Program-made: the position numbers and the translations under genes
In this document: piece after piece, positions 388 through 19,951 of the stretch
Layout of the letters: each line of letters opens with the position of its first letter
Position numbering within the stretch: position 1 is the first letter of the stretch
Notes under the pieces: generated by a model
Told to the model about the DNA's origin: nothing
The model's database searches: none
What the model saw: only the letters and a program-made list of their open reading frames with translations
NCBI GenBank assembly: GCA_964526585.1
Contig: CAZGIN010000001.1
Span: forward strand, 1-36,962
Length of the DNA: 36,962 nucleotides
Direction: 5' to 3'
Origin: an uncultured Methanosarcinales archaeon
GTDB lineage: Archaea > Nanobdellota > Nanobdellia > Woesearchaeales > CAZGIN01

Positions 388-726
388 ATGGTTATTGATT
401 ATATCGTATTGAGTACAAGGCATGCTCCTCCCTTGCCTGAAGGAACTACTGAAAAAGTCCGTTATGGTACTCCTTTTAATGTGTTCCTTGTGGAGAGCTC
501 TTTAAATGGGGAGTACAAGACTGTTAGGGATGTGTTCCATGTTCCTGATCCTGTTGCTATAGGCCCTTGGCCCAAACCGATCAGGCTTTCAGGAGATAGC
601 ATAGAGTATAAGCGTATAATTAAGCATCTCGGTAGAGGGCTTGTCCAGAGCAATCCTCTCAATTCAGAAGATGATGCCAGAAGCTATATGCTTTCTTTTG
701 TAGAAAAGCCTTCTGAAGAGGATTAA
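388..726 (+). CDS. hypothetical protein
   Basis: 112-aa ORF with ordinary, non-low-complexity composition. Convergent with folA, overlapping it by 4 nt. No motif recognised. Confidence 0.4.
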   Translation: MVIDYIVLSTRHAPPLPEGTTEKVRYGTPFNVFLVESSLNGEYKTVRDVFHVPDPVAIGPWPKPIRLSGDSIEYKRIIKHLGRGLVQSNPLNSEDDARSYMLSFVEKPSEED

Positions 727-1187
727 CCAGTCTTTCTTTTGTATCTCTTGAATATGAAATCAGGATATTCTTTTTCTTCAACTATTTCCCATTCGTTATC
801 ATCCCATCTTGGGAAGAATGCATCTCCTGGGATGGATCTCTTCACCCATGACAGCTGCATCTCATCAGCAAGAGGTAAAAACTGTGCATATATCGAAGCC
901 CCTCCAATAATAAACACATCAACACCATAAGATTTAGCTTTCTCAACAGCCTCAGGTATGCTTAATACTACATCCACTCCTGGAATATCGACAGGATCTT
1001 TTGATAATACTATATTGTTTCGGTTTGGCAAAGGTCTCCCGATAGACCTAAACGTATTAAGCCCCATTATACATGTATTTCCTGAAGTAGTTTCCCTGAA
1101 GTGCTTCATGTCATCTGGGATGTTCCATGGAAGCGTATTTTTCACGCCTATTGCTAAGTCTGGAGCTACTGAGCATATTAGTTTCAT
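723..1187 (-). CDS. folA: dihydrofolate reductase
   Basis: 154 aa. N-terminus ...IGVKNTLPWNIPDDMKHFRETTSGNTCIMGLNTFRSIGRPLPNRNNIVLS matches the DHFR fold signature (LPW, hF, GR.T). Lies directly downstream of thyA. Confidence 0.9.
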   Translation of the reverse strand: MKLICSVAPDLAIGVKNTLPWNIPDDMKHFRETTSGNTCIMGLNTFRSIGRPLPNRNNIVLSKDPVDIPGVDVVLSIPEAVEKAKSYGVDVFIIGGASIYAQFLPLADEMQLSWVKRSIPGDAFFPRWDDNEWEIVEEKEYPDFIFKRYKRKTG

Positions 1188-1251
1188 CCTATTACCTCTT
1201 TATTAGTCTTATTTTTCTTATATAAATATTTTATTACTTGGGCCATTTTTT

Positions 1252-2118
1252 CTATACAGCAACGTTAAATTTTATCCTTGGATGTTTTTGGTATCCTTCT
1301 ACTATCGTATCAGTATACTTCCATTCAAATATTGATTTAAAGTTTTCTGTCCTTATCTTTGGGAGAGGATAAGGCTCTCTTTTGATCTGTTCTTTCAGTC
1401 CTTCTACATGATTTTGGTATATATGTGTGTCTGCTAGGAATCCTACCAGTTTTCCTTCTTGTAATCTTGTTTCCTTTGCAAGTAGGTGCAATAGCAACGC
1501 ATATGATGCGATATTAAACGGCAATCCCAATGCAACATCAACACTGCGCTGGTTCCAGAGCAGATTCAGCTTGCCGTTTATCACAGTTACCTGAAATCCG
1601 TAATGGCATGCTGGCAGTGCCATCTCTTTTAGGTTGACAGGATTCCATGCTGTTACTATCATACGTCTGTCATTTGGGTTTGTCTTCAGCTTCTCAATAA
1701 GATTTCTTAATTGGTCAACACCTTCTCCTATAGGGGGCTTGTCATATGCTGAATATTTTGCCCCGATGTTTCTCCATTGCCATCCGTATACTGGCCCCAG
1801 ATCGCGCTCTTCCATCATCTTTCTTTGAGTTTCCTCATCATGTCCATATGGAACTTTCAAAGGTGTGCACCATTCATCCCAGATGTGGTTTTCCCTGTCT
1901 TGAAGCCATCTTTTGTCTGTTATGCCTTTGATAAAAAATTCCAGTTCTGAAGCTACAAGTCTTAGAGGGACTGATTTTGTCGTCAACAGAGGAAACCCTT
2001 TGCTCATGTCATGCTCAAACATGGCTCCTGCTATGGCTATTGTCCCTGTTCCTGTCCTGTCATCTTTGACAGCTCCTTCCTCAAGAATTCTTTTTACAAT
2101 ATCCAGATATGCTTTCAT
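1252..2118 (-). CDS. thyA: thymidylate synthase (ThyA type)
   Basis: 288 aa with DRTGTGT, the active-site region ALPACHYGFQ, and RSVDVALGLPFNIASYALL. These are classical ThyA motifs. Confidence 0.95.
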   Translation of the reverse strand: MKAYLDIVKRILEEGAVKDDRTGTGTIAIAGAMFEHDMSKGFPLLTTKSVPLRLVASELEFFIKGITDKRWLQDRENHIWDEWCTPLKVPYGHDEETQRKMMEERDLGPVYGWQWRNIGAKYSAYDKPPIGEGVDQLRNLIEKLKTNPNDRRMIVTAWNPVNLKEMALPACHYGFQVTVINGKLNLLWNQRSVDVALGLPFNIASYALLLHLLAKETRLQEGKLVGFLADTHIYQNHVEGLKEQIKREPYPLPKIRTENFKSIFEWKYTDTIVEGYQKHPRIKFNVAV

Positions 2119-2165
2119 CCTTGCCCACCAAATTGTTGAGAATTAGCTTAAATATAAAGTTTTGG

Positions 2166-2594
2166 TTAGCTTATCTCCACCTTATCCCCTGCTTCTAATC
2201 CTATCTTGGAAACAGTCCCTGCATTCACTTCAAGCACATACAGCGCTGCTTTTCCAGGGCGTATGCTGTCACAGGAAGAAGTCTTGCATGGCTGAACATT
2301 CTCTGCTATAAACACTACATCATCGTTTGCATCGATCCATATCATGTCTAAAGGTATCAATGTATCCTTCATCCAGAATGAATATATCCCTGGCTGTTCG
2401 AACACGAACAGCATTCCCGAATCAGGGTCTAAGCTCTCCCGATGCATCAATCCTGTAGCTCTCTCTTGAGGTGTATCTGCTATCTCAACATTAAAACATC
2501 TCTCTTCAAAGCATGCTTTTGGTGTTGCGCATCCTGCTAGTAATATTAAGAAGAAGATGCAGAATCCAGCTCGGTTTTTCTTGCCAGCAGCCAT
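2166..2594 (-). CDS. DUF192 domain lipoprotein
   Basis: 142 aa. Signal peptide plus LLAGC lipobox. ERATGLMHRESLDPDSGMLFVF...IPLDMIWID is typical of DUF192 (COG1430). Overlaps the 3' end of the upstream gene by 49 nt. Confidence 0.7.
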   Translation of the reverse strand: MAAGKKNRAGFCIFFLILLAGCATPKACFEERCFNVEIADTPQERATGLMHRESLDPDSGMLFVFEQPGIYSFWMKDTLIPLDMIWIDANDDVVFIAENVQPCKTSSCDSIRPGKAALYVLEVNAGTVSKIGLEAGDKVEIS

Positions 2595-3085
2595 AGATAG
2601 TCTGACAGCCTGTTCAAGTATTTAAGTATTAGCTTGTTCTCCAATAGCTGGTTCTGGTCCAATACAACAACGCATCTCTCAGCTCTTCTGCACACAGTGC
2701 GCGCCAGCTCCAATAAAGCACTGTTCCAGTTTTCTCCTGGGATCGACCAAGTCCTCATGACATCATATTTTTTCTCTATGTCTTTTCCTTTTTGTTCAAG
2801 AAAATCTATGTGTGATTGCCCTATCTTTTTCTTTGCTATCTTCAGCTTGTAGTCATCATATAAGGTTGTTGCAAGTTCTGCATTGATCATGAATGTCTCT
2901 TTTTGTATCTTCAGTATGTCTTTCTTTATCTCGTTATCCATCAAAGCTGCTCTTATCAGCCCTAGCGCTGCATTCAGCTCATCTACAGTCCCATAGGCAT
3001 CGACGCGCAAGTTATGTTTAGGCGCTACCCTTCCGTACATTATGTTTGTGTTTCCTTTGTCACCGATCTTTGTTGTTATGCCCAT
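2546..3085 (-). CDS. pduO: ATP:cob(I)alamin adenosyltransferase, PduO type
   Basis: 179 aa. N-terminus TKIGDKGNT......RV.K...RVDAYGTVDELNAALG and C-terminus YLNRLSDYLWLLAR are the PduO/MMAB family hallmarks. Start lies 1 nt after the nrdJ stop. Confidence 0.85.
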   Translation of the reverse strand: MGITTKIGDKGNTNIMYGRVAPKHNLRVDAYGTVDELNAALGLIRAALMDNEIKKDILKIQKETFMINAELATTLYDDYKLKIAKKKIGQSHIDFLEQKGKDIEKKYDVMRTWSIPGENWNSALLELARTVCRRAERCVVVLDQNQLLENKLILKYLNRLSDYLWLLARKTELDSASSS

Positions 3086-3086
3086 C

Positions 3087-5144
3087 TTATTCAGCCACTA
3101 GTGCAGCTTCCACCTCTTTTACTTTTTCGTTCACTTCGCTTATATTAAAGACTTGGTTTCCTCTTGATCCGTCTCTGTAGATAGTCACTCCTTTGCAGCC
3201 TAGCTTCCATGCTAAAAGGAACGCCTCTTTTATGTCTTCTAGTGTAGCATGATTAGAAAAATTTATTGTTTTTGATATTGCGCTGTCTACATGCTCCTGC
3301 AGCGCTGCCTGCGTCTTCACATGATATTCAGGAGAGATCTCGTGCGCTACTGCAAATACTTTTTTCAGCTCTTCTGGTATGCCTTCTATGGATGCTAAGC
3401 TTCCTCTTTCTGCTACTTTTTTCATCAGCTCTTCTGAGTATATTCCTTCTTCTTTTGCTGCTTCTCTGAAATATTCATTTACATACACGAATTTCTGCCC
3501 TCCTAATACGTTCTTGATGTATCCTAGCCCGAAGTTTGGCTCGCATCCTGAGCTTGTCCCTGATATCATGCTTATTGTTCCTGTAGGCCCTATCGATGTT
3601 ACTGTTGAGTTTCTCATGAATATGTTTTTCCTTACATAGATGCTCTTTGCATAGTCTTTGAAAGGCCCTTTTGTTTCTCCTAATTCTTGTGATTTTTCAT
3701 GCGCTTCTTTCTGTATGAATGCCATTATCTTTTTTGCTGTCTTTATGCCTTCTTCTGAATTGTAAGGTATCCTTAGTTGGTAGAGCATGTCTGCATATCC
3801 CATCAGCCCTAGCCCTATCTTTCTCGTTCTTTTGCTCATCTCTTCAAATTTTTTGGATGGGAACTCAGTCAAGTCAAGCGCGCAGTCTAGTAGTTCAACT
3901 CCTGTCCTTACTGTTGTCTTTAGCCTGTCCCAGTTTATTGTCTTGTTCTTCACCATGTTTGCCAGGTTTACTGATCCCATCACTGCTGACTCATAAGGAA
4001 GTAAAGGAAGTTCTCCGCAAGGGTCTGTCGCTTCGATATCTCCCAATCCTTTCAGCGGATGCATATCATTTATCCTGTCTATAAATAGTAATCCTGGCTC
4101 TCCTGTTTCCCATGCCTGCCTTACTATTAGGTCAAATACTTTTTTTGCGCTTGCTTTTCCTGTCTCTCTTCCTGTGAAAGGATCGGTTAATGGATAGTTC
4201 TCTTCTTTCTCCAGCGCTTCCATGAACTCGTTTGTTATCGCAACCGATATGTTGAAGTTTTGCAGCTCATCCAGGTCTTTCTTTGAGGTTATGAACGCTA
4301 CTATGTCAGGATGGTCTGCTCTTAGCACTCCCATGTTTGCTCCTCTTCCGCTTCCCTGCTTTATCGTCTCTGTCTCAAAATCGATAAGTTTCATGAAGCT
4401 TACAGGCCCTGTTGCATTTCCGTTTGTCATCGTTACTTTGCTTCCTTTTGGCCTTATCGATGAGAAATCAAATCCTGTTCCTGCTCCTGCTTTGTGTATG
4501 AGTGAAGCGTGCTTCACTGATTCAAATATCCCTTTTATGCTGTCAGGGATAGGCAGTACATAGCATGACTGCAGCTGTCGGCTTCTTAGGTTTGCATTTG
4601 CTAGTATCCTTCCTGATGGGATAAAATCCAAGGTGTGCATTATGTTGTGGAAATTGTTCTCTGCATCTGTTGCGTGTATCTCCTTGCTTGCCAATGCTCT
4701 TGCCACCCTTTTGAACATCTGTGCAGGAGTTTCTATTATCTTGCCTGTATCATCTCTTGCAAGATATTTTGCTGCTACTATCCTCACTTGGTTTAGGTCT
4801 AGTTTAGAATCATCTATCAGCCCGTCTAGTATCTCTTTTTTCTGCTCCCTTAGTTTTGATCTTTCCTGCCTGTATAGTATGAATGCTTTTGCTGTGGCTG
4901 CATGTCCTTCTTCTATTAAGACTTTCTCTATAAGGTCTTGTATCTCCTCAACTGCAGGTATGCTGTTTGCGTGGAACTTCTCGTTAAGGACGTCAACGAC
5001 CCTATCTGCTACTTCTTCTGCTGTTTTCCTGTCTGAGCCGCCTGCTGCCTGTGCTGATTTGAACACTGCTTGGACTAGCCTTTCATAGTTGAACAGCACT
5101 ATGCTGCCGTCCCTTTTCCTTACTTTGGTTATCTTGTTTTGCAT
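3087..5144 (-). CDS. nrdJ: class II (adenosylcobalamin-type) ribonucleotide reductase paralog with N-terminal ATP-cone and divergent active-site motif
   Basis: 685 aa. ATP-cone (VRKRDGSIVLFNYERLVQAV...), RNR barrel motifs (GGGTGFDFS-like AGAGTGFDFSSIRPKG, SIGPTGTIS, TIYRDGSR). The canonical [21 protein letters not shown] reads DPCGELPLLPYESAVMGSVNL here. Confidence 0.9.
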   Translation of the reverse strand: MQNKITKVRKRDGSIVLFNYERLVQAVFKSAQAAGGSDRKTAEEVADRVVDVLNEKFHANSIPAVEEIQDLIEKVLIEEGHAATAKAFILYRQERSKLREQKKEILDGLIDDSKLDLNQVRIVAAKYLARDDTGKIIETPAQMFKRVARALASKEIHATDAENNFHNIMHTLDFIPSGRILANANLRSRQLQSCYVLPIPDSIKGIFESVKHASLIHKAGAGTGFDFSSIRPKGSKVTMTNGNATGPVSFMKLIDFETETIKQGSGRGANMGVLRADHPDIVAFITSKKDLDELQNFNISVAITNEFMEALEKEENYPLTDPFTGRETGKASAKKVFDLIVRQAWETGEPGLLFIDRINDMHPLKGLGDIEATDPCGELPLLPYESAVMGSVNLANMVKNKTINWDRLKTTVRTGVELLDCALDLTEFPSKKFEEMSKRTRKIGLGLMGYADMLYQLRIPYNSEEGIKTAKKIMAFIQKEAHEKSQELGETKGPFKDYAKSIYVRKNIFMRNSTVTSIGPTGTISMISGTSSGCEPNFGLGYIKNVLGGQKFVYVNEYFREAAKEEGIYSEELMKKVAERGSLASIEGIPEELKKVFAVAHEISPEYHVKTQAALQEHVDSAISKTINFSNHATLEDIKEAFLLAWKLGCKGVTIYRDGSRGNQVFNISEVNEKVKEVEAALVAE

Positions 5145-5146
5145 CT

Positions 5147-5803
5147 CTAGTCTCTTCTTATTATTGTTACCTTGTGGTCTCCGCGGAATAGTGCCGGAAT
5201 ATTGGATGGGCTAGCCACATAGATCCTATCAACACATTCACCATATTTCCTAAATTCTTTTTGAAGAGTATCTATCAGCTTTGTTCTTCCTTCTCCAGGC
5301 TCTGCTACATAATGCAGCCTTACCCCTGGAGGTCTTGTCTTTCCCTTTTGATTAAGCAGTCTTCTTCCCAGCCATTCAGCTGTCACTAGTGCTTGCAGCT
5401 CGCTTTGGCCTGGTTCAAGCCTTGTATCTAGAACATATTTTTGTGCTTCTGGGCTTGCTTTTCCTATGACTGTTATCCCTTCGATTTGCTTTACCTCTTC
5501 TGTAGTAGGGTAGTATGATGCTATATTTTCTCCTCTGTACTGGTTGATGCTCGCAGCCAATCCTAGTCCTACTATTCCTAATCCAAGGGATTCAGCTTTC
5601 TCTTGCAGCTGTTCATCTTTCAGGACTTCTGGAACGCTTGTCATGTCTTCAAGTTTCAGAGAAGTGCTTACGACAACAACAAATCTGTCTCCTTGAGTAA
5701 AGCTACCGCTTAAGTAATAAGGAACATAGCTTATATTAATAAGATCTGTTGGTTCACAAATCAGTTCTTCCGGAACATGTATGAAGTGCGCAAGTCTTGC
5801 CAC
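5147..5803 (-). CDS. hypothetical protein encoded between the two RNR paralogs
   Basis: 218 aa. GTG start preceded by GGAGG about 7 nt upstream, inside the end of the upstream nrdJ. Its stop is 2 nt from the next start. No recognisable motif. Confidence 0.6.
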   Translation of the reverse strand: MARLAHFIHVPEELICEPTDLINISYVPYYLSGSFTQGDRFVVVVSTSLKLEDMTSVPEVLKDEQLQEKAESLGLGIVGLGLAASINQYRGENIASYYPTTEEVKQIEGITVIGKASPEAQKYVLDTRLEPGQSELQALVTAEWLGRRLLNQKGKTRPPGVRLHYVAEPGEGRTKLIDTLQKEFRKYGECVDRIYVASPSNIPALFRGDHKVTIIRRD

Positions 5804-5818
5804 TTTCTTCCTCCATTT

Positions 5819-8452
5819 TTAGTCGCCGCAGCTTTTTACCAGTTTGCCGTCTACCAGCTCTACTTTGCAGGCTCCCCCTACGACTTTTACGTCATCTCTC
5901 TTTTTTGGAGCGTCTTCCTCTGCTTCATGTATTATGTAGCTGCTGTCTTTCTGCATCTCGTGGAATGGTGTTGTCAGCCTCCCATCCGGAGTTATCATGA
6001 CTTCATCCCCTTTGATGATCTTCTCTTCTGCTACCTGCATTACGCGGTATTTCTTCTCTTTTGCTGTTGAAAACTTTGTCTGCTGCTGTGCTACGCTCAG
6101 TATAGGAAATCTGCTCCCGTCTCTGTAAATGGTTATCCCTTTAAGTTTTTTTCTCCATGCCTGCAGGTATACGTCGCTTATCACTTCAGGCTCTATGCTT
6201 TCAGGCAGGTTTACTGTGCTTGAGATGCTGTGGTCGATATATCTTTGGCATGTTGATTGAACTTCCACTCTTTTTTCTGGTTTTATGTAGTGTGCTGTCC
6301 TGAAGAAGTGCTCTGGCAGTACTTTCATCAGCTCTTCTGTTGTCTGCGCCTCATTTACTTTTTCCTGAAGTTCATTCTTGTCTATGTATGCCTGTACTGT
6401 CGGATGGAATATCTTGTATACCTTGTTGCCGAAGCTTTCGGATCTTCTTTGGTAATACAGGGAGAATATGGGCTCTATTCCTCCGCTTACTCCTACATAG
6501 TTCTTGTTTCCGTCTTTGTATCCCAGTATGACATTTGATATTGTTCCTGTTGGCGCTATTGACAGTACTGCTACATTCCTCAGTCCGTATTTTTTGATCA
6601 TCTCTTGTGTTTCTTCATCCAATACTTCCTGGAAGAATGGGTTTTGTGCATATACGTCATAGTTCCATATCGGTATCGGCCCTTTTTCTGCTGCCAGCTG
6701 CGCGCTTGCTTGGTATGATACGTTTGCTATGAAGCTCGCTACCTTGTCCATGGTTGCTATTCCTTCTTCTGAGTCATAGCCTATCCCTAGCTGGTTTAGC
6801 ATGTCTGCTATCCCCATATATCCCAGTCCTATCCTTCTTGTCTCTTTTGCTGCTTTTCTTTGTTTTTCTAATGGGTTTAGCGTCTGGTTCCATGATATGA
6901 CATTATCAAGAAATCTTACTATGTCTTGCACAGAGTTTTTTATCATCTTCCAGTCTATCCTTGCGTCTGGTGTATATCCGTTTACTACGCATCTTGACAG
7001 GTTGATGCTTGCCAGGTTGCATGCTCCCCCATCTTCTAATGGAACTTCTCCGCATGGGTTTGTCGATGCTATTGGCTTTCCCAGATAGTTTGATGGAGAG
7101 TATTTTGTCATTGTGCTCCAGAATATCAGTCCTGGCTCTGCTGTCTTATAGTTTCCTTTCACGAATTCGTTCCAGATGTCTTTTGCTTTCACCAGGTTCT
7201 TCACTGCTCCTGCCTGCGCTGAGCTGTAGTACAGCATGAAGTCTCCTGCGTATTTTATCGCAAGGTCATACTTTTCATTCTCCATTGTAAGCACATAGTC
7301 TCCGAACATGTCTCTGTTGTCCTTGTCATCAAGCTGCTCTTTTGCGACTAGCACATTGTGGTTTTCTGTCAGGAACTCGTTCAGCTTCTCTATGTTGTCA
7401 AAGTCAGCATAAAGTTCATATTCTTCAATATCCTTGCTTGGTATGTTGTGAGCATAGTTTGTCTCTTTTGAGTTATGGTACTGGTCCATTATTGCTTTGT
7501 TCTGCTTTTTGTATACAAGTATCCTGTTTGGGCCGTAGCTTTTCTGCTCTTCTACTGCCTGCATGAACTCATCTGATACCTTGACTGATATGTTTGCAAA
7601 CCTGATCTGGGTGTTGTCTCTTACTTGTTTTTCTATCTCTGCAAGGTGCTTGTCATCAAACATTCCTGACATCTTGCATTGGTGTATTATCTGGCTCGTC
7701 ACCCAGTTGTTCTTCTGCTTCACGTTTATGAAATCGAGGATATCAGGGTGCTTTACATCTATCGTCAGCATCAGTGCCCCTCTTCTTCCTGATTGCCCTA
7801 TCAGCCCTGTTGTCAGTGAGTATATCTCCATGAAGCTTACTGCTCCTGTGCTCTTGTCTGCTGCGTTATGCACTACTGAATTTCTTGGCCTTAGGTTTGA
7901 TATGTCTACTCCTATCCCTCCTCCATAAGAATAGGTGCGGGCGCATTCGTACGCTGTCTGGTATATGCTCTCTATGTTGTCTTCCTCTATCAAGGAGACA
8001 AAGCAGTTCGCTAGTGTCTTTAGCCTGTACAGGTCTCCAGCTCCTGCTATCACTCTTCCTCCTGGCAGGAATATTCCTTCATATAATAGCTTGTAGAACT
8101 TTTCTGAGTATATCTTTTGTTTCTCATGGTTTTCTTCGAGTGATGCTATCGCTGCTGCCAGCCTTGTGAACACATCCTCAGGCCTTTTTTCTATGCAGTT
8201 GCCTTCAAAGTTCTTGAGATAGTACTTCCTTTTGTATATGTCATGCACTAGTTCTGATTCTCCGATATAGTTATTCTCAGGGTGCATAGGCAGCTCCCCT
8301 TTTCTCTGAAGCTCTCTAAGGTGCCTATAGAGGGTCTTGTATGCTGCGATCTTTTCAGGGCTTACCAGCTTCAGCAGCTTTGTCTTATGTTCAAACATGC
8401 TTTCAAATTCAGGAGAAATAATCTTCTCTGCCTGCAGTACTTCTTCACTCAT
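5819..8452 (-). CDS. nrdJ: class II ribonucleotide reductase, no ATP-cone, C-terminal Cys pair
   Basis: Motifs LANCFV, NPCGEVPLEDGGACNLASINL, SIAPTGTIS, TIYRDGSR, and C-terminal tail ...GGACKVELVDGKLVKSCGD. The track ORF opens with GTG at 8461. I prefer ATG at 8452 because GAGGTG lies 6 nt upstream of it. Confidence 0.9.
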   Translation of the reverse strand: MSEEVLQAEKIISPEFESMFEHKTKLLKLVSPEKIAAYKTLYRHLRELQRKGELPMHPENNYIGESELVHDIYKRKYYLKNFEGNCIEKRPEDVFTRLAAAIASLEENHEKQKIYSEKFYKLLYEGIFLPGGRVIAGAGDLYRLKTLANCFVSLIEEDNIESIYQTAYECARTYSYGGGIGVDISNLRPRNSVVHNAADKSTGAVSFMEIYSLTTGLIGQSGRRGALMLTIDVKHPDILDFINVKQKNNWVTSQIIHQCKMSGMFDDKHLAEIEKQVRDNTQIRFANISVKVSDEFMQAVEEQKSYGPNRILVYKKQNKAIMDQYHNSKETNYAHNIPSKDIEEYELYADFDNIEKLNEFLTENHNVLVAKEQLDDKDNRDMFGDYVLTMENEKYDLAIKYAGDFMLYYSSAQAGAVKNLVKAKDIWNEFVKGNYKTAEPGLIFWSTMTKYSPSNYLGKPIASTNPCGEVPLEDGGACNLASINLSRCVVNGYTPDARIDWKMIKNSVQDIVRFLDNVISWNQTLNPLEKQRKAAKETRRIGLGYMGIADMLNQLGIGYDSEEGIATMDKVASFIANVSYQASAQLAAEKGPIPIWNYDVYAQNPFFQEVLDEETQEMIKKYGLRNVAVLSIAPTGTISNVILGYKDGNKNYVGVSGGIEPIFSLYYQRRSESFGNKVYKIFHPTVQAYIDKNELQEKVNEAQTTEELMKVLPEHFFRTAHYIKPEKRVEVQSTCQRYIDHSISSTVNLPESIEPEVISDVYLQAWRKKLKGITIYRDGSRFPILSVAQQQTKFSTAKEKKYRVMQVAEEKIIKGDEVMITPDGRLTTPFHEMQKDSSYIIHEAEEDAPKKRDDVKVVGGACKVELVDGKLVKSCGD

Positions 8453-8503
8453 CCACCACACCTCTTGTCCTCTTATTTTGTTTTTGTCTTGTCTATTGAT
8501 TGA

Positions 8504-9010: not shown

Positions 9011-10729
9011 CTAAGCCAATCCTCTCAACTCTTCTATCTCTCTCTTTATTATCTCAAATCCTTTCTGCCAGAACTTCTCAGAATTGATGTCTATGCCTGC
9101 TTCTGCCAATATGTCTCCGGGCGCCATGTTTCCTCCATAAGAGAGTATCTTCATGTATTTTGGCACAAATGCTTTTCCTTCTTCTTCATACATCTTGTAC
9201 AATGCTAATACAAGCAGATTCCCGAACGCATATGCATAGCAGTAGAATGGGCTGAAATATATGTGAGGGATGTATTTCCACTCATGCCTGAATACTTCTG
9301 GTATTGGAATATTGCCGAACTGCTCTTTGAGGTTGCTCAGATATTCTTTGTTCAGCTCTTCAACTGTCGCTCCTTCTGCTATCATCGCATGGGCTTTCTC
9401 TTCGAACATGACAAAATATGCCTGCCTTGTTATGCTTGCGTACTGCCCTTCAAGCATTCTCATAAGCAGCCCTTTCTTCTCCTCTTTGCCTGCTTCTTTC
9501 AGCAGTTTCTGGGCAAGCAGCATTTCGTTGAATATGGATGCTGTCTCTGCCAAAGGAAGCGCTGCATGGTATGTAAACTCAGACTGCTCTTTTGATGCTA
9601 TGAAATGTACTGCATGTCCCATCTCATGCGCCATAGTGAACAGGTCGTTCATCTTGTTCATGTGGTTCAGCATCACATAAGGCCCTATATCTCTTGTTGT
9701 TGATGTGCAGTATGCTCCGCTTCTTTTTCCCGGCTTAACATCAGAATGCACGTGCTTTTTCTCAAACACTTCTTTTGCCATGTTCTTGGCATCATTTGAG
9801 AATTCTCCGATCACTTCTAATACTATCCTCTTGCTCTCTTCATAGCTGTATTCTTTCTTTGATTCCTTCAATGGCGCCAATATGTCATATCTATCTAATT
9901 TTATCCCTAATATATTTGCTTTGAGCTTGAAATATTCCTGGAAAACCTGTTTATTCCTCCTGACAACCTTAAGCATAGCTTCCACGGTTTCATCTGGGAT
10001 GTCATTTGCTATGTTCTGCACTGATATAGGGGTTTTATATCCCCTTATGCTTATGCTCTCGTTTCTCCAGTCATTAACTATGCTCTTGTATATCTCTCCA
10101 AGTGCTTGCTCTTCCTCTCCGAACTTTGATAGTACTAAGTCGTAGCTTTTCTTTCTTTCTTCTCTTTTGGAGCTTTGCTTGTATACATTGATCTGTTCCT
10201 GGTTCAGCTTCTTCCCTTTCCAGTCAAATAAGAACTTGTTTGTTATGATGTCATATATCCTTACTGATGCTTCTGTCCCTGAAAGGTCTTTCAGGTTGAT
10301 TATCTTCTCTTCCTTCTCGCTTAATGTGTATGGCTTGTAATCCCTTATCCTTTGCAGCATATACTTGTATTTGCCGCTTGCCTCTATGAAATTTTTTGCC
10401 TTTTTCTCATCAAGATCCTTAAACCATATCCCGAAGAACAGCATATCATTTGACAGCCTTGCTAATATCTCAGATATTTTTGCTTGATGTGCATTCCTCT
10501 TTGAGTCTGTTGTGTCTTCTGTCTGCCACAGCATCGCATAGCTTGCTACTTTTGCTGCTGACTCTGCTATCTCTTCCTTTTGCCTTACAAGCTTTAGAAA
10601 TTCTTTCACTCCTATATTGTCAAGCTTATCCCTGCTCTTGCTGAACTCTTGAGCTTTCTCTTTCAGCTCTTCTATCAGTTTCTCAGTCTGCTTAAACTGA
10701 TATATATCCTCTAGGTTCCATACTGCCAT
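9011..10729 (-). CDS. pepF: oligoendopeptidase F (M3B metallopeptidase)
   Basis: 572 aa. Zinc site FTMAHEMGHAVH (HExxH). Overall PepF-like length and layout. Confidence 0.85.
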   Translation of the reverse strand: MAVWNLEDIYQFKQTEKLIEELKEKAQEFSKSRDKLDNIGVKEFLKLVRQKEEIAESAAKVASYAMLWQTEDTTDSKRNAHQAKISEILARLSNDMLFFGIWFKDLDEKKAKNFIEASGKYKYMLQRIRDYKPYTLSEKEEKIINLKDLSGTEASVRIYDIITNKFLFDWKGKKLNQEQINVYKQSSKREERKKSYDLVLSKFGEEEQALGEIYKSIVNDWRNESISIRGYKTPISVQNIANDIPDETVEAMLKVVRRNKQVFQEYFKLKANILGIKLDRYDILAPLKESKKEYSYEESKRIVLEVIGEFSNDAKNMAKEVFEKKHVHSDVKPGKRSGAYCTSTTRDIGPYVMLNHMNKMNDLFTMAHEMGHAVHFIASKEQSEFTYHAALPLAETASIFNEMLLAQKLLKEAGKEEKKGLLMRMLEGQYASITRQAYFVMFEEKAHAMIAEGATVEELNKEYLSNLKEQFGNIPIPEVFRHEWKYIPHIYFSPFYCYAYAFGNLLVLALYKMYEEEGKAFVPKYMKILSYGGNMAPGDILAEAGIDINSEKFWQKGFEIIKREIEELRGLA

Positions 10730-10732
10730 GCC

Positions 10733-11614
10733 TTAACCTTCCACTTCGTTTGTTATCGCCCAGTCGAACAGTACTTCTGCTGCGCTCAACAGATAATTTC
10801 TTACTCTCTCTTTATGATAGTTCTTAAGGTTTGTGCTTGTCTCTTCTTTTATCTTTTTTATCTGGTTTGTAAATTCGAGAACTTCATTGTAGTGTATCTT
10901 TTTCTTCTCTACAGCAGGGTCTATGAGATCTTTTAGCGCATCGACTGCTTTCAGCGTGAGCTCAAGATAGGTTTTGTCCTGCCTGTCTACTTTTATCAGG
11001 TGGTCTGCCAGCCTTTCAAGGTCTTTTGCCAAAAGTGATATGTAGTATAGGTCTATTGTGCTTAATCTTGAGGATCTGTGATGCGTTAGGCTGCTTATCA
11101 CTGCCTTGTTGATAAGCATCCTGTTCTTGTCTATCTCTTCTTCATACCTGTGTATCAGCTCTTCATTGTAGTTTTTTGTCATTATTATCAGGATGTTCTT
11201 TATCTTCCCGATCATTGTCTTCAGCAGTGCTTCGCATCCTGTTATTGTAACAAAGCTTTCGCAGCTGATAGAATTGTTCTCTATGTCCAGCAGCTCTACA
11301 TTGATGAGTTTTTTCTGCTCCAATAGCTTCCTTTGGTCTAATGGCTTTTCAAGCAGGATCTTGAAGCTGTCTACAGGGTTTATGTAGCATGATACCACTA
11401 TCTTGTTTATTATGTCTAAGTTATCCTCATCGATCTTAAGCTGCAGGTTTTTCTTCTTTTTCTCCACTACTTTCGGGCTGATTATCAGCTCTCCTCCGCT
11501 TCCCCTGCTTAGGCTTATAGTTGAATCTGAGCTTATCCTGAATTCTTTGCACCATGCTGTTGGAAGATACACATAATGCATATCTCCTGTCCGTTGTATT
11601 TTTCTTAAATCCAT
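10733..11614 (-). CDS. AbrB/SpoVT-domain plus PhoU-like regulator
   Basis: N-terminus MDLRKIQRTGDMHYVYLPTAWCKEF is a SpoVT/AbrB swapped-hairpin motif, followed by about 200 aa of helical PhoU-like repeats. The track ORF opens with GTG at 11626. ATG at 11614 sits about 29 nt downstream of the TATA at 11640-11647. Confidence 0.7.
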   Translation of the reverse strand: MDLRKIQRTGDMHYVYLPTAWCKEFRISSDSTISLSRGSGGELIISPKVVEKKKKNLQLKIDEDNLDIINKIVVSCYINPVDSFKILLEKPLDQRKLLEQKKLINVELLDIENNSISCESFVTITGCEALLKTMIGKIKNILIIMTKNYNEELIHRYEEEIDKNRMLINKAVISSLTHHRSSRLSTIDLYYISLLAKDLERLADHLIKVDRQDKTYLELTLKAVDALKDLIDPAVEKKKIHYNEVLEFTNQIKKIKEETSTNLKNYHKERVRNYLLSAAEVLFDWAITNEVEG

Positions 11615-11639
11615 ATATTTAGTCACTATTTAGCCCCTA

Positions 11640-11998: not shown

Positions 11999-12099
11999 TG
12001 AGCCTGCGAGGATTTGAACCCCGGTCAACCGGTTTCTGCTTTTATAACCGAAGCCGGCCGCACTCTCTGGAATGATTATCCAGGCTATGCTACAGGCCC
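11999..12099 (-). tRNA. tRNA-Arg(UCG), inferred to carry two insertions/introns (anticodon loop 37/38 and D-arm)
   Basis: Reverse complement gives acceptor GGGCCUG/CAGGCUC (one G-U), discriminator A, D-loop AGCCUGGAUA, anticodon stem GCCGG/CCGGU, loop CU-UCG-G...A, T-arm CGGGG-UUCAAAU-CCUCG. It is 101 nt in total, or 74 nt after removing a 14-nt and a 13-nt insert. No encoded CCA. Confidence 0.7.
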
Positions 12100-17474: not shown

Positions 17475-17498
17475 GTTGCTGTGCTTTGGAATGTTAAA

Positions 17499-18353
17499 AT
17501 GTTAGGATTGTTCAAGGATTCAGCAAAGGAAGTCCATCAGAGCCTGTCAAGGCTCGATGCAAGGCTGCAAAAAGCATTTACAACAGTGCGAAGTGATATG
17601 CAAAATCTTTCAGCCTGGATCAGCTATCTGCATCAAAAGATGCAGGCTCAGGATGCACAGTTGCAGCAGGCTTTGCAGGAATCAAGAAATGCATCCACAA
17701 CAGCAAGAAACAATCCTGGTGGCCAAAAAGTGAGCCCTGAATTCATCCAGGCTCAGGTTAGTGCTTCCCCCCAGATGCATTTTCTGCAGAACTCATTGAG
17801 CCATCTGCAGCTGAGGATGAGCGAATTGGCCGACTCGAAAGGGGTTTCCCCTCAGGATTTTCATGCTTTGAGCTCAAAAGTGAGTGATTTGAGGGAGAAG
17901 TTCCATGATTTGGGCTCCCGGGTGAGCCGTATTGACAGCATTGAACATGAGATTGACCATAAGATTGGCCAAAATATGGCTGTTTTTGAGCAAAAAGTGA
18001 GTTCAAGGCTGGATTCTGTTGAGCAAAAAGTAGGAGATGTGTGGCAAAGGCTTGATGATCTTGCGAAAAAACCTTCTGTGAAGGAGACAAGACAGCAGTT
18101 CAAGGAGAAGATAATGAAGAAGATAACAAGGCACTCTAAGGAGTATATCCGCAACATGATTTTGTCTTTGATTAAAAAATACGAGCGGGTTTCAGCCCTT
18201 AATTTGAGGGAGATTATAGTCGAGGAGCAGGCTTTGTGTTCAAAAAGTTCTTTCTATCGTTTCCTTGAAGAGCTTGAAAAATCTGATGAGATCGAGTCTT
18301 TTTCAGAGGGAAAAGAAAAGTTTTTTGTCTACAAGGTGGTGAGAGAGGTGTAA
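17499..18353 (+). CDS. coiled-coil protein with C-terminal winged-helix-like domain
   Basis: About 284 aa from ATG 17499 (track start is GTG 17481). Q/S-rich heptad-like N-terminal two-thirds with repeated (Q/S)KVS units. The C-terminus ...ILSLIKKYERVSALNLREIIVEEQALCSKSSFYRFLEELEKSDEIESF looks like a wHTH. Confidence 0.6.
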   Translation: MLGLFKDSAKEVHQSLSRLDARLQKAFTTVRSDMQNLSAWISYLHQKMQAQDAQLQQALQESRNASTTARNNPGGQKVSPEFIQAQVSASPQMHFLQNSLSHLQLRMSELADSKGVSPQDFHALSSKVSDLREKFHDLGSRVSRIDSIEHEIDHKIGQNMAVFEQKVSSRLDSVEQKVGDVWQRLDDLAKKPSVKETRQQFKEKIMKKITRHSKEYIRNMILSLIKKYERVSALNLREIIVEEQALCSKSSFYRFLEELEKSDEIESFSEGKEKFFVYKVVREV

Positions 18354-18392
18354 ACGATTATCGACGCTGCATTGTAATGTACTGCCGAAAAC

Positions 18393-18400
18393 TATTTAAA
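18393..18400 (+). promoter_or_regulatory. TATA box for the ORF starting at 18455
   Basis: tatttaaa. The predicted TSS falls inside the palindrome 18416-18434. Confidence 0.4.
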
Positions 18401-18415
18401 GCTCTCAACTATCGA

Positions 18416-18434
18416 TTAATTCCTGGGGAATTAA
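18416..18434. promoter_or_regulatory. operator-like palindrome TTAATTCC-TGG-GGAATTAA
   Basis: Perfect 8-bp arms. Its core ATTCC-N3-GGAAT is the palindromic form of the ATTCCCA motif. A sibling, attcc-ttg-ggaat, lies at 17236-17248. Confidence 0.5.
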
Positions 18435-18454
18435 AGGCAAGGTGGTAATACTTT

Positions 18455-19006
18455 ATGGTGTTTGATAACATTAAGAGAGCTCTATCTCACGACGACGTTA
18501 AGGAGCTCGAGTCAAGATTCAAGAGATCTATCAACCAGTTTAAGGAAGAGTTTGAGGATCATCTTGATGCTATTAACCAGAATACCAATGAGATACAGTC
18601 TAACTATGAATTCCTTTGCAATCTCGATTCCAAGATCAACAAGCTTAACGAGAGGATAGACGAGCTTTTCATGATGTTTAAGCATCAGCATGAGGAGCCT
18701 TCTCCTAGCTTTGAGATCCATGCTCTTACTAAGCGTGAAAAAGAAGTGTTTATGGCATTATACGCTTTAGAAGAAGAGCTTGATAAGGTATCATATCTTG
18801 ATCTTGCCAGGCGTTTAGGTATGACTGTTGAGCTTGTCCAGTCTTACATATCCAATCTCGTCGACAAAGGCATCCCTCTTCTTAAGAGGTACATCAACAA
18901 CAACGCTTATATCAGGATCGATCCTGCTTTCAAGTCTGTCCAGGCTAAGAAGAATTTCTTGGAGATGAACGAGCAGATTTCTGAGAAAGTCATATCCTAC
19001 GAATAG
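18455..19006 (+). CDS. coiled-coil protein with C-terminal HTH (LuxR/sigma-70 region 4-like)
   Basis: 183 aa. AGGTGG lies 9 nt upstream of the ATG. N-terminal helical half. The C-terminal LTKREKEVFMALYALEEELDKVSYLDLARRLGMTVELVQSYISNLVDKG resembles an HTH. Confidence 0.65.
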   Translation: MVFDNIKRALSHDDVKELESRFKRSINQFKEEFEDHLDAINQNTNEIQSNYEFLCNLDSKINKLNERIDELFMMFKHQHEEPSPSFEIHALTKREKEVFMALYALEEELDKVSYLDLARRLGMTVELVQSYISNLVDKGIPLLKRYINNNAYIRIDPAFKSVQAKKNFLEMNEQISEKVISYE

Positions 19007-19132: not shown

Positions 19133-19951
19133 ATGCAGGATTTTGAGTTTTCAGGGCCTGAAAGGCGAAAGTCGACCAAAGCAGCGATCTACATTCGAGT
19201 CTCCACCGAAGAACAGGCCAAAGAAGGCATATCCATGAAAGCTCAGGAAGAGCGCTGCAGGGCTTTTTGCATCGCCCGAGGTTGGGATGTCTTCAAGATC
19301 TACAAAGATCCTGGTTTTTCTGCAAAGAATCTTTCAAGGCCTGCTATGAAGCGCGTTCTTCAGGATGCTAAGGACAAGAAATTTAGAGTGCTGGTTGTCT
19401 ACAAGTTTGACAGGTTTTCAAGAAACCTTAAGGACCTTCTTTTCACTTTGGAGGATCTTAGGAAGCTTGCGATCAACTTCACTTCAGTTACTGAGCAGAT
19501 CGATACCACAACTGCTATGGGCAAGGCTTTCTTCAGGATAATAGGCGTTTTTGCTGAGCTTGAGCGTGATGTGCTAAAAGAGCGTGTCGATATGGCTTTT
19601 GCTAAGAAGATCATGTCCGGAGAGGCTCTTAACAGAGCTCCTTTTGGTTATGCTTATGATAAGGGCAGATTAGTTCCAGATGTCGAAAAAGCTCCTCTTG
19701 TGCAGCAGATTTTTGAGATGAAAGCTGACGGCATCCATTACAAAGACATCGCTCAGAATGCAAATTTGGCTGTCTCATCGCTCTTTGATATGCTTCGTAA
19801 TCCGGTCTATCTTGGCAAGATAAAATATCGAGGCAGGCTTTACAATGGTTTGCACAAAGCGATCATCTCTGAGGATCTGTTCAAGAAGGTCAATCCCCAG
19901 TTTGAGATTCCCGACGATATCGGCTCTTTTTCTGCCAAAGGCCAGAAGTAA
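19133..19951 (+). CDS. serine recombinase (resolvase catalytic domain plus recombinase domain; short form)
   Basis: 272 aa. AAIYIRVSTEEQ carries the catalytic Ser. Also VVYKFDRFSRN and GVFAELERD. Then RAPFGYAYDKGRLVPDVEKAPLVQQIFEM...LRNPVYLGKIKY is typical of the 'recombinase' domain of large serine recombinases. No zinc-ribbon or coiled-coil tail. Confidence 0.9.
   Translation: MQDFEFSGPERRKSTKAAIYIRVSTEEQAKEGISMKAQEERCRAFCIARGWDVFKIYKDPGFSAKNLSRPAMKRVLQDAKDKKFRVLVVYKFDRFSRNLKDLLFTLEDLRKLAINFTSVTEQIDTTTAMGKAFFRIIGVFAELERDVLKERVDMAFAKKIMSGEALNRAPFGYAYDKGRLVPDVEKAPLVQQIFEMKADGIHYKDIAQNANLAVSSLFDMLRNPVYLGKIKYRGRLYNGLHKAIISEDLFKKVNPQFEIPDDIGSFSAKGQK

Follow-up and report, generated by a model that had tools for sequence, protein, structure and literature searches.

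We found that the 36,962-nt stretch of contig CAZGIN010000001.1 examined here (the window) encodes two class II ribonucleotide reductase (RNR) proteins, NrdJ, side by side, and that one of them is a pseudo-enzyme-like paralog of the class II catalytic chain, of a kind that recurs in DPANN archaea. This variant NrdJ, encoded on the minus strand at 3087-5144, combines an ATP-cone with a class II body that has a degenerate active site and no Cys tail. It is very probably not a conventional thiol-dependent reductase. We favor, at roughly even odds (about 0.5), the reading that it has an allosteric or accessory role, without reducing nucleotides itself, alongside the neighboring catalytic NrdJ. The evidence is that catalytic residues are lost, that allosteric residues are retained, that the protein is under purifying selection, that its gene order is conserved, and that the same state is found in many lineages.

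The variant is a member of the class II RNR family by fold and by homology. Pfam recognized an ATP-cone (residues 7-96), an RNR all-alpha domain and an RNR barrel in its 685 residues, with matches to PF02867 (E=4e-124) and PF00317. The closest solved relative in HMMER alignments was the NrdJ of Thermotoga maritima (1xje, E=2e-105). An AlphaFold2 model (mean predicted local distance difference test score, pLDDT, 88; predicted template modeling score, pTM, 0.86) was matched by Foldseek to the same enzyme (1xje/3o0n) with a template modeling (TM) score of 0.82. Both the variant and T. maritima NrdJ have a thiyl Cys and a Glu in the finger loop as well as the beta-A Cys; the effector residues of loop 1 (D141, K158 and R171), the phosphate loops and the motifs of betaI and betaJ are also common to the two. 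Unlike that enzyme, it has Asp in place of N320 and Ala or Ser in place of C333, has lost the equivalent of R207 from a loop 2 that is one residue shorter, and lacks the C-terminal Cys pair or Zn-finger. Unlike the crystallized T. maritima chain, it also carries an N-terminal ATP-cone; the alignment starts after the cone.

The active-site changes were located by the alignment with 1xje, which is ungapped across the motif, where positions 3978-4025 of the minus strand translate to DPCGELPLLPYESAVM. The canonical N-P-C-x-E motif (N437, C439 and E441 in Escherichia coli) reads D-P-C-G-E in the variant and in its four orthologs, which are 66-68% identical to it and come from independent assemblies; we refer to these five proteins as clade W. 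Of the redox Cys pair formed by T. maritima C134 and C333, only the first is present, as Cys194, which corresponds to E. coli Cys225 (its role is described in PMC4728125); the second is Ala in the variant and Ala or Ser in the orthologs. The catalytic set is thus lost in part only, with the thiyl Cys, the Glu and the beta-A Cys all retained. The Asn-Leu that follows C333 is Val-Met in the variant, which alone is weak evidence because CTL, CDL, CCL and CVL all occur in tail-bearing NrdJs.

Substrate contacts are affected as well. In T. maritima NrdJ, Asn320 and Glu324 bind the substrate 3'-OH, and Ser91 and Arg207 bind the substrate phosphates (Table 4 of PMC4728125); the E. coli mutant R298A, at the position equivalent to Arg207, is nearly or fully inactive (PMC4728125). 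The Arg207-equivalent position, for which gap placement in this flexible loop is uncertain, is G in the variant and N, N, N and K in its orthologs, leaving loop 2 without the phosphate-binding Arg. The apical phosphate-binding loop reads PSGR, a motif of the triphosphate type (PMC8365446). At its C-terminus (...TIYRDGSRGNQVFNISEVNEKVKEVEAALVAE) the variant has no Cys after the conserved LGCKG, and the same is true throughout clade W, compared with 2-7 Cys in the last 60 residues of canonical relatives. Neither a C-terminal Cys pair nor a Cys-rich Zn-finger is therefore present, and it is the C-terminal Cys tail that re-reduces the active site (PMC5704485).

A preliminary description of this DNA, made from its letters and reading frames, had proposed that key catalytic residues of the class II motif were lost. 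Its individual readings (Asn to Asp, Cys to Ala, Asn-Leu to Val-Met, and no C-terminal Cys pair) are correct, the four orthologs share the substitutions, and the ungapped alignment dismisses the concern that C333 and N320 might be present and merely shifted. The broader claim holds for N320, C333 and the tail; it does not extend to the thiyl Cys, the Glu and the beta-A Cys. It had not noticed that loop 2 lacks an equivalent of Arg207 or that the apical loop has become PSGR.

The partial nature of the losses raises the question of whether the variant is still an RNR that dispenses with the thiol pair, using adenosylcobalamin (AdoCbl), thiyl Cys376 and the beta-A Cys194 only, together with a small-molecule reductant, for example formate. 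In clade W precisely C134, C322 and E324 are kept and, among these sites, only C333 and the tail are lost; the finger loop and phosphate loops of the clade are invariant, and the PSGR loop predicts binding of nucleoside triphosphates (NTPs). According to PMC9669993, formate-type class III enzymes (NrdD) likewise use the beta-A Cys alone, with a finger-loop thiyl Cys and no thiol tail, and the variant Asp, two residues before the thiyl Cys, occupies the class III Met position. The finger loop of NrdD, however, reads Met-Gly-Cys-Arg, and NrdD has a glycyl-radical domain and lacks the active-site Glu, whereas the variant has Asp-Pro-Cys-Gly-Glu and no glycyl-radical domain. With Asp instead of Met there is no thiosulfuranyl partner; the Met of the AVM triplet is Leu in orthologs; and the substrate-binding N320 and the R207 equivalent are both gone. 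The variant is, moreover, never the sole RNR where flanks are long enough, except at one locus (L023, below), and to our knowledge no class II enzyme uses formate. The formate-type reading is further disfavored because related degenerate lineages have lost the beta-A Cys or the Glu, both of which it needs. We consider this explanation distinctly improbable. The class III analogy drawn in the preliminary description thus survives in the single beta-A Cys and breaks down at the Asp, the retained Glu and the unconserved Met.

Among the nearest database homologs of the variant, the motif was readable in 113: 108 had NPCGE/CNL, and the five exceptions were the members of clade W, whose signature is D, then A or S, V or I, and L or M, in every case without a Cys tail. 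For the same pairs among four genomes, identities were 65.5-71.1% for the variant and 64.7-68.2% for the canonical partner. Since it has diverged no faster than the canonical NrdJ of the same genomes, the variant is as constrained as the essential enzyme, and it is under strong purifying selection; it thus combines catalytic-residue loss with purifying selection, as expected of a pseudo-enzyme. Sequencing error and pseudogene status were ruled out by intact reading frames with common substitutions in five independent assemblies. A functionless relic of a displaced enzyme, yet to disappear, would account for degraded catalytic residues beside a competent NrdJ, but it is scarcely credible for open reading frames (ORFs) that remain unbroken across five independent assemblies, with 66-71% identity, and have diverged to the same extent as an essential partner, particularly as the same state recurs in many lineages in which the ATP-cone is 90% retained.

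In contrast to the reductive residues, the allosteric features of the variant are complete. Eight ATP-cone residues (K10, R11, E66, D70, E73, K86, R92 and R99) are invariant in 65 homologs, so that the protein has the N-terminal cone and the conserved nucleotide-binding residues of an ATP-cone-regulated RNR subunit. The specificity site is likewise intact. T. maritima Asp141, Lys158 and Arg171, on alphaA and loop 1, bind the specificity effector (Table 4 of PMC4728125), and their counterparts D201, K218 and R231 are invariant in clade W.

The gene next to the variant encodes the presumed catalytic partner. This 880-aa NrdJ has NPCGE...ACNLASINL, LANCFV and a tail ending ...ACKVELVDGKLVKSCGD, with every canonical residue present and no ATP-cone; the preliminary description had correctly given its NPCGE...ACNLASINL motif, the two Cys of its tail and the lack of a cone. 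Its C-x13-C tail is conserved in relatives at loci L088, L089 and L090. It is 60-67% identical to a widespread NrdJ of Caldithrix, Woesearchaeota and others, and only 30-35% identical to the variant. The two genes thus belong to different NrdJ subfamilies and, on sequence grounds, are not recent duplicates; a recent tandem duplication was rejected for this reason.

Gene order is conserved around the variant. At all four loci with enough flank, a cone-less canonical NrdJ of ~890-904 aa, the variant and a PduO-type adenosyltransferase follow one another on the same strand; the orthologous loci compared were a 223-kb JGI contig and its Logan twin, a Woesearchaeota metagenome-assembled genome (MAG) and a 13-kb JGI contig. 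Catalytic positions were also located in each of the RNR-like ORFs from 90 fetched loci (L numbers; the window locus is WIN) and in the 150 nearest 50%-cluster representatives (P numbers). The order canonical nrdJ, degenerate paralog, adenosyltransferase was found in WIN, L001, L004, L005 and L006. Other arrangements of the same three genes occurred in L012, L020, L024, L027, L039 and L090, and two of the genes only in L088. Under a strict flank filter, a second RNR lay beside 9 of 10 degenerate copies, compared with 4 of 16 canonical ATP-cone NrdJs (Fisher p=0.004). Adding L005, L039, L088 and L090 raised the count to 13 of 14, L023 being the exception; co-occurrence with an intact paralog is thus nearly obligate. 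The canonical neighbors span several subfamilies (~880 aa, ~1000-1100 aa, a same-family type of 609-715 aa and a split type), some with an ATP-cone of their own and others with none.

Several other arrangements of NrdJ bodies were observed in the same set. In P0242 (1351 aa) and P0243 (1600 aa), two complete NrdJ bodies are joined in one polypeptide; the N-terminal module is of the tail-less short type, the other has a long C-terminal extension bearing a Zn-finger, and the catalytic motifs of both are intact or nearly so. Different NrdJ bodies may thus be encoded to work side by side, and these fusions are possible Rosetta-stone evidence for pairs. Cone-less NrdJ-like ORFs of ~590-620 aa in L042 (5986-7761), L055 (5860-7716) and L064 (5998-7764) read D-S-C-G-E, keep both redox Cys and lack the Cys tail; each is preceded, at a distance of a few kb, by genes for a canonical NrdJ with a cone and for a CobA adenosyltransferase, so that the domain arrangement is the reverse of that in the window. 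Two copies look intermediate: one in L037 (4909-6960) has all catalytic residues and no Cys tail and sits beside an 828-aa NrdJ, and one in L007 (9998-12109; P0114) has NPCAE/CVL and a short ECEVC tail and adjoins a split NrdJ (530 + 249 aa) and a HAD hydrolase. ORFs in L031 (8437-10710), L032 (4528-6093) and L033 (8956-11046) matched the query over the ATP-cone only and not over the barrel. They come after canonical NrdJs that lack a cone, from which a CobA gene separates them in L031 and L032, and may encode class III NrdD or another cone-bearing protein.

Degeneration of this kind is not confined to clade W. At least 17 other lineages have ATP-cone NrdJ-like proteins of 660-770 aa with variously degraded active sites and no Cys tail (Table 1; further examples are P0256, P0263, P0264, P0267, P0273, P0291 and P0324), mostly in MAGs of Woesearchaeota, Nanoarchaeota and other DPANN archaea. 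The losses differ from lineage to lineage: C134D and E324D in L006; C134S, E324D and C333V in L088b; C134T in L090b; C134T and E324S in P0080. Such variety is what one would expect where selection has ceased to act on reduction chemistry but still maintains allosteric binding of nucleotides.

Table 1. Active-site signatures of degenerate ATP-cone NrdJ-like proteins, in the order C134 / N320-P321-C322 / G323-E324 / C333-N334-L335.
Protein	Signature
L006	D / GPC / AD / CIM
L088b	S / DPC / GD / VPY
L090b	T / SAC / AE / CPL
P0080	T / DSC / AS / VCL
L012b, L020b, L026	C / SPC / AE / C[MV][IL]
L021, L022, L024, L027	C / NQC / GE / [CI][VG]L
L023	C / GPC / GE / TPH
L039	G / TP- / GE / CFT

We quantified this pattern by scoring 17 degenerate lineage representatives at those columns whose conservation among 34 canonical relatives is 90% or more (columns numbered as in the variant). 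Retention over the ATP-cone was 0.90 overall and 1.00 at each of K10, R11, G13, E66, Q69, D70, E73, Y91, R92 and R99. Effector-site D201 and R231 were retained in all 17 lineages (1.00), and the loop-1 Gly/Ser signature at ~1.00. The barrel core (272-345) scored 0.91, betaI (ISKTIN motif) 0.95 and betaJ (CKGxTxYRDGS motif) 0.84. Values were far lower at the positions of catalysis and substrate binding: 0.47 for the beta-A Cys (C194), 0.18 for N374, 0.47 for C387, 0.00 for N388, 0.47 for loop-2 Q263, 0.35 for the loop-2 Arg column and 0.47-0.59 for the N, S and P of the apical loop.

Taken together, these data lead us to infer that the variant has probably lost reductase activity, may pair physically with its partner and may have a regulatory role. 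In the mechanism that we propose, a protein that lacks a second redox Cys and a C-terminal Cys tail, and with them the Asn and the loop-2 Arg that hold the substrate by its 3'-OH and its phosphates, respectively, would most likely no longer make deoxynucleotides, and its RNR fold, functional-looking ATP-cone and specificity site for deoxynucleoside triphosphates (dNTPs) would serve another end. A plausible form is an alpha-alpha' heterodimer with the canonical NrdJ across the conserved alphaA/alphaB helix interface, since RNR alpha chains dimerize through alphaA/alphaB and build the specificity site there (PMC9531940). Through its ATP-cone and effector site, the variant in such a heterodimer would respond to the levels of ATP and dNTPs and adjust the catalytic partner accordingly. 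The variant is likely to be the resident ATP-cone NrdJ of these archaea, because it still occupies the usual slot directly upstream of the adenosyltransferase gene. An NrdJ of another subfamily would then have been added upstream and have taken over catalysis; the partner looks like such an addition because it is only 30-35% identical to the variant. We favor this pseudo-enzyme reading because a canonical NrdJ nearly always shares the operon of the variant and because the ATP-cone and specificity residues are kept, which speaks for the regulatory partnership suggested in the preliminary description, except that a cone supplied in trans is not a general explanation.

That exception is one of several observations that weigh against our interpretation. 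The partners in L090 and L012 carry their own ATP-cone, and for this reason provision of the cone in trans cannot apply throughout. The partner subfamily occurs alone in L089, and probably in Caldithrix, so the partner is not strictly dependent on the variant; conversely, the degenerate copy in L023 has no second nrdJ within 6 kb. Across the degenerate lineages, the thiyl Cys is retained at 0.94, though its neighbors N374 and G377 drop to 0.18-0.53. Within clade W, the finger loop is invariant and the most conserved segments, 346-400 (72%), 511-560 (77%) and 601-665 (79%), line the active or cofactor site (finger loop, distal phosphate loop, betaI/betaJ), for which a pure scaffold has no obvious need. 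Changes that are specific to the clade and invariant in it also lie near the active site (A193S, F195Y, G221A, A519G, I534C and A539G) and, to judge from the sequences, look like remodeling rather than decay. Neighbor-joining (NJ) trees placed the degenerate lineages in several positions with poor bootstrap values of 0-37%; neither a single origin of all degenerate lineages nor a PxGR/Asp superclade was supported.

One of the clade-specific residues, Cys534 (nt 3543-3545, minus strand; SSGCEPNF), is Ile, Leu or Val in relatives and Cys throughout clade W. Together with F195Y, which adjoins the beta-A Cys, it might form part of a remodeled active site. This residue could be taken to mean that another Cys has replaced C333 and that the variant is an ordinary thiol-dependent NrdJ with nothing essential lost. 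Its location in the SGxEP segment after the distal phosphate loop would be compatible with such a role. A relocated Cys would, however, account neither for N320D nor for the absence of the tail and of an R207 equivalent, and the other degenerate lineages have no such Cys; we therefore regard this explanation as very unlikely.

A further reading, which we hold to be a minority possibility, is that the variant and its degenerate relatives, nearly all of which keep the radical Cys, are still AdoCbl radical proteins on a class II scaffold without a thiol pair. They may then be thiol-independent reductases with an external reductant, in effect class II/III hybrids, or enzymes or cofactor-handling proteins with a different reaction on a bound NTP. 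In the more specific form of this idea, the variant is a neofunctionalized AdoCbl protein that performs other radical nucleotide chemistry or acts as an AdoCbl reservoir or chaperone between the adenosyltransferase and NrdJ. The retention of the thiyl Cys and of the betaI and betaJ motifs (0.84-0.95) is in keeping with this, as the adenosyl pocket is the space between betaJ and the finger loop (PMC9531940), and the clade-specific invariant changes, including Cys534 and Tyr195, cluster near that site. TDPCG[ED] recurs in WIN, L088b, P0264 and P0267, and P0256 has the closely similar TDTCGE. In 20 of 21 loci the gene after the degenerate copy encodes an adenosyltransferase, which is either PduO or the non-homologous CobA. 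This association is, however, only partly specific to the variant: the link is generic for nrdJ in these genomes, as an adenosyltransferase also follows the single canonical ATP-cone NrdJ in 31 of 68 other loci, and for that reason we interpret the position of the variant as the ancestral nrdJ-adenosyltransferase slot. The degenerate lineages have no common new motif, and the proposed role is without known precedent. We therefore rate this neofunctionalized form as unlikely, and retain the non-reducing accessory paralog as the preferred reading.

Beyond the adenosyltransferase gene, the same-strand deoxynucleotide cluster goes on with genes for DUF192, ThyA and DHFR (Table 2). The 218-aa ORF between the two nrdJ genes was considered as a conserved third component, for example a reductant protein. 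It had no Pfam match, matched only itself among 5.8 billion proteins and gave an AlphaFold2 model with a pLDDT of 34; orthologous loci have 3-165 bp in its place and lack the ORF. A conserved component was thereby ruled out, and the ORF is either a lineage-specific ORFan or not a gene. No B12 riboswitch or other RNA element was found in the cluster by Rfam, whose sole match in the window at the gathering threshold was a tRNA elsewhere (11999-12099, minus strand; 101 nt, 40 bits). ARAGORN missed this tRNA, and its length suggests an intron-containing archaeal tRNA.

Table 2. Coordinates of the variant NrdJ, its functional sites and the surrounding gene cluster in the window.
Feature	Position	Strand	Details and basis
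Variant NrdJ paralog: ATP-cone and class II RNR body, degenerate active site, no Cys tail	3087..5144	-	685 aa; ORF list, Pfam, 1xje alignment
ATP-cone, aa 7-96	4857..5126	-	KRDG and AKAFILYR nucleotide-binding motifs intact; Pfam PF03477 E=9e-22, translation
Apical phosphate-binding loop P-S-G-R	4608..4619	-	Triphosphate type; P-N-S-P in close canonical relatives; translation, column table
Cys194 (T. maritima C134, E. coli C225)	4563..4565	-	Beta-A redox/proton-donor Cys, kept; alignment, translation
Loop 2, KQGS-GRGA	4338..4361	-	One residue shorter than relatives; Arg207/Arg298 equivalent is Gly; alignment, translation
Finger loop D374-P-C376-G-E378	4011..4025	-	N320 to D; thiyl Cys (C322) and Glu (E324) kept; invariant in the 5 orthologs
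A387-V388-M389 replacing C333-N334-L335	3978..3986	-	Second redox Cys gone; 1xje alignment, translation
Short C-terminal tail, aa 661-685	3090..3164	-	No Cys pair or Zn-finger; pLDDT <50 for aa 665-685
Canonical NrdJ, presumed catalytic	5819..8461	-	880 aa; PGGR loop, no ATP-cone, C-x13-C tail; ORF list, Pfam
ORFan between the two nrdJ genes	5147..5803	-	218 aa; GTG start, 15 and 2 bp from the flanking nrdJ genes
PduO-type ATP:cob(I)alamin adenosyltransferase	2546..3085	-	Immediately downstream of the variant; Pfam PF01923 E=3.5e-48
DUF192	2166-2594	-	Pfam; part of the deoxynucleotide cluster spanning 723..2594
Thymidylate synthase ThyA	1252-2118	-	Identity by reading the translated sequence
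Dihydrofolate reductase (DHFR)	723-1187	-	Identity by reading the translated sequence

Elsewhere the window has the character of ordinary archaeal chromosome and includes genes for Spt5, L11, FtsZ and PAC2. A 297-aa protein (10733-11626, minus strand) has a weak PhoU-domain match and an N-terminus that is AbrB/SpoVT-like by eye; downstream of it, a 572-aa ORF (9011-10729) reads as an oligoendopeptidase F-like peptidase. A serine recombinase with Resolvase and Recombinase domains lies at 19133-19951 (plus strand) and adjoins small ORFs at 17481-19006, one of which has a weak winged helix-turn-helix match. The sign of the GC skew flips over ~18-22 kb of the window, and the recombinase region may be an integrated mobile element.

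Comparison with known systems provides partial parallels. In yeast, Rnr4 is the inactive partner in the Rnr2-Rnr4 beta-beta' heterodimer, and Rnr1 and Rnr3 form an alpha pairing. Like Rnr4, which works only with its active paralog, the variant is an RNR paralog that has lost catalytic or cofactor residues and has been retained under selection. Rnr4 and Rnr3 are eukaryotic class I subunits, however, whereas here it is the class II catalytic alpha chain that is degenerate, in a putative heterodimer. The herpesvirus R1 homologs M45 and UL45 have the RNR large-subunit fold without RNR activity and act on host signaling. The variant resembles them in keeping this fold after the loss of catalytic residues, for a role that would likewise be non-enzymatic; they differ in being viral, in having nothing to do with nucleotide allostery and in lacking an active RNR as partner. 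A third parallel is the ATP-cone carried by NrdB of Leeuwenhoekiella and Facklamia, where, in the accessible parts of PMC5794259 and PMC6187632, overall-activity control reaches a cone-less catalytic subunit from another polypeptide. Unlike in those systems, the cone here would sit on a degenerate copy of the catalytic subunit itself.

The literature searched, which included work on DPANN RNRs, gave no account of conserved NrdJ paralogs of a degenerate, pseudo- or inactive kind. NPCXE is reported for 3175 of 3347 class II sequences in PMC9669993, the accessible part of which does not discuss the remainder. In the PASV preprint, 286 of 29,401 RNRdb sequences lacking N437, C439, E441 or C462 were removed as non-functional; discarding RNRs that lack the four essential residues in this way would explain why a conserved, recurrent and operon-linked family has stayed unstudied. 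Why a genome should have more than one nrdJ gene has been regarded as a puzzle, for which differing phosphate specificity was the explanation given (PMC8365446). An NrdJ copy that is not a conventional reductase is a different answer to that puzzle, for at least part of the cases. Should the variant prove instead to carry out altered chemistry, the chemistry known for the RNR scaffold would be expanded. If the regulatory reading is true, the variant would give class II RNRs their first alpha-prime subunit and a new way to attach an ATP-cone and specificity control to the catalytic chain, and it would bear on how dNTP supply is controlled in genome-reduced symbionts that scavenge nucleotides and B12.

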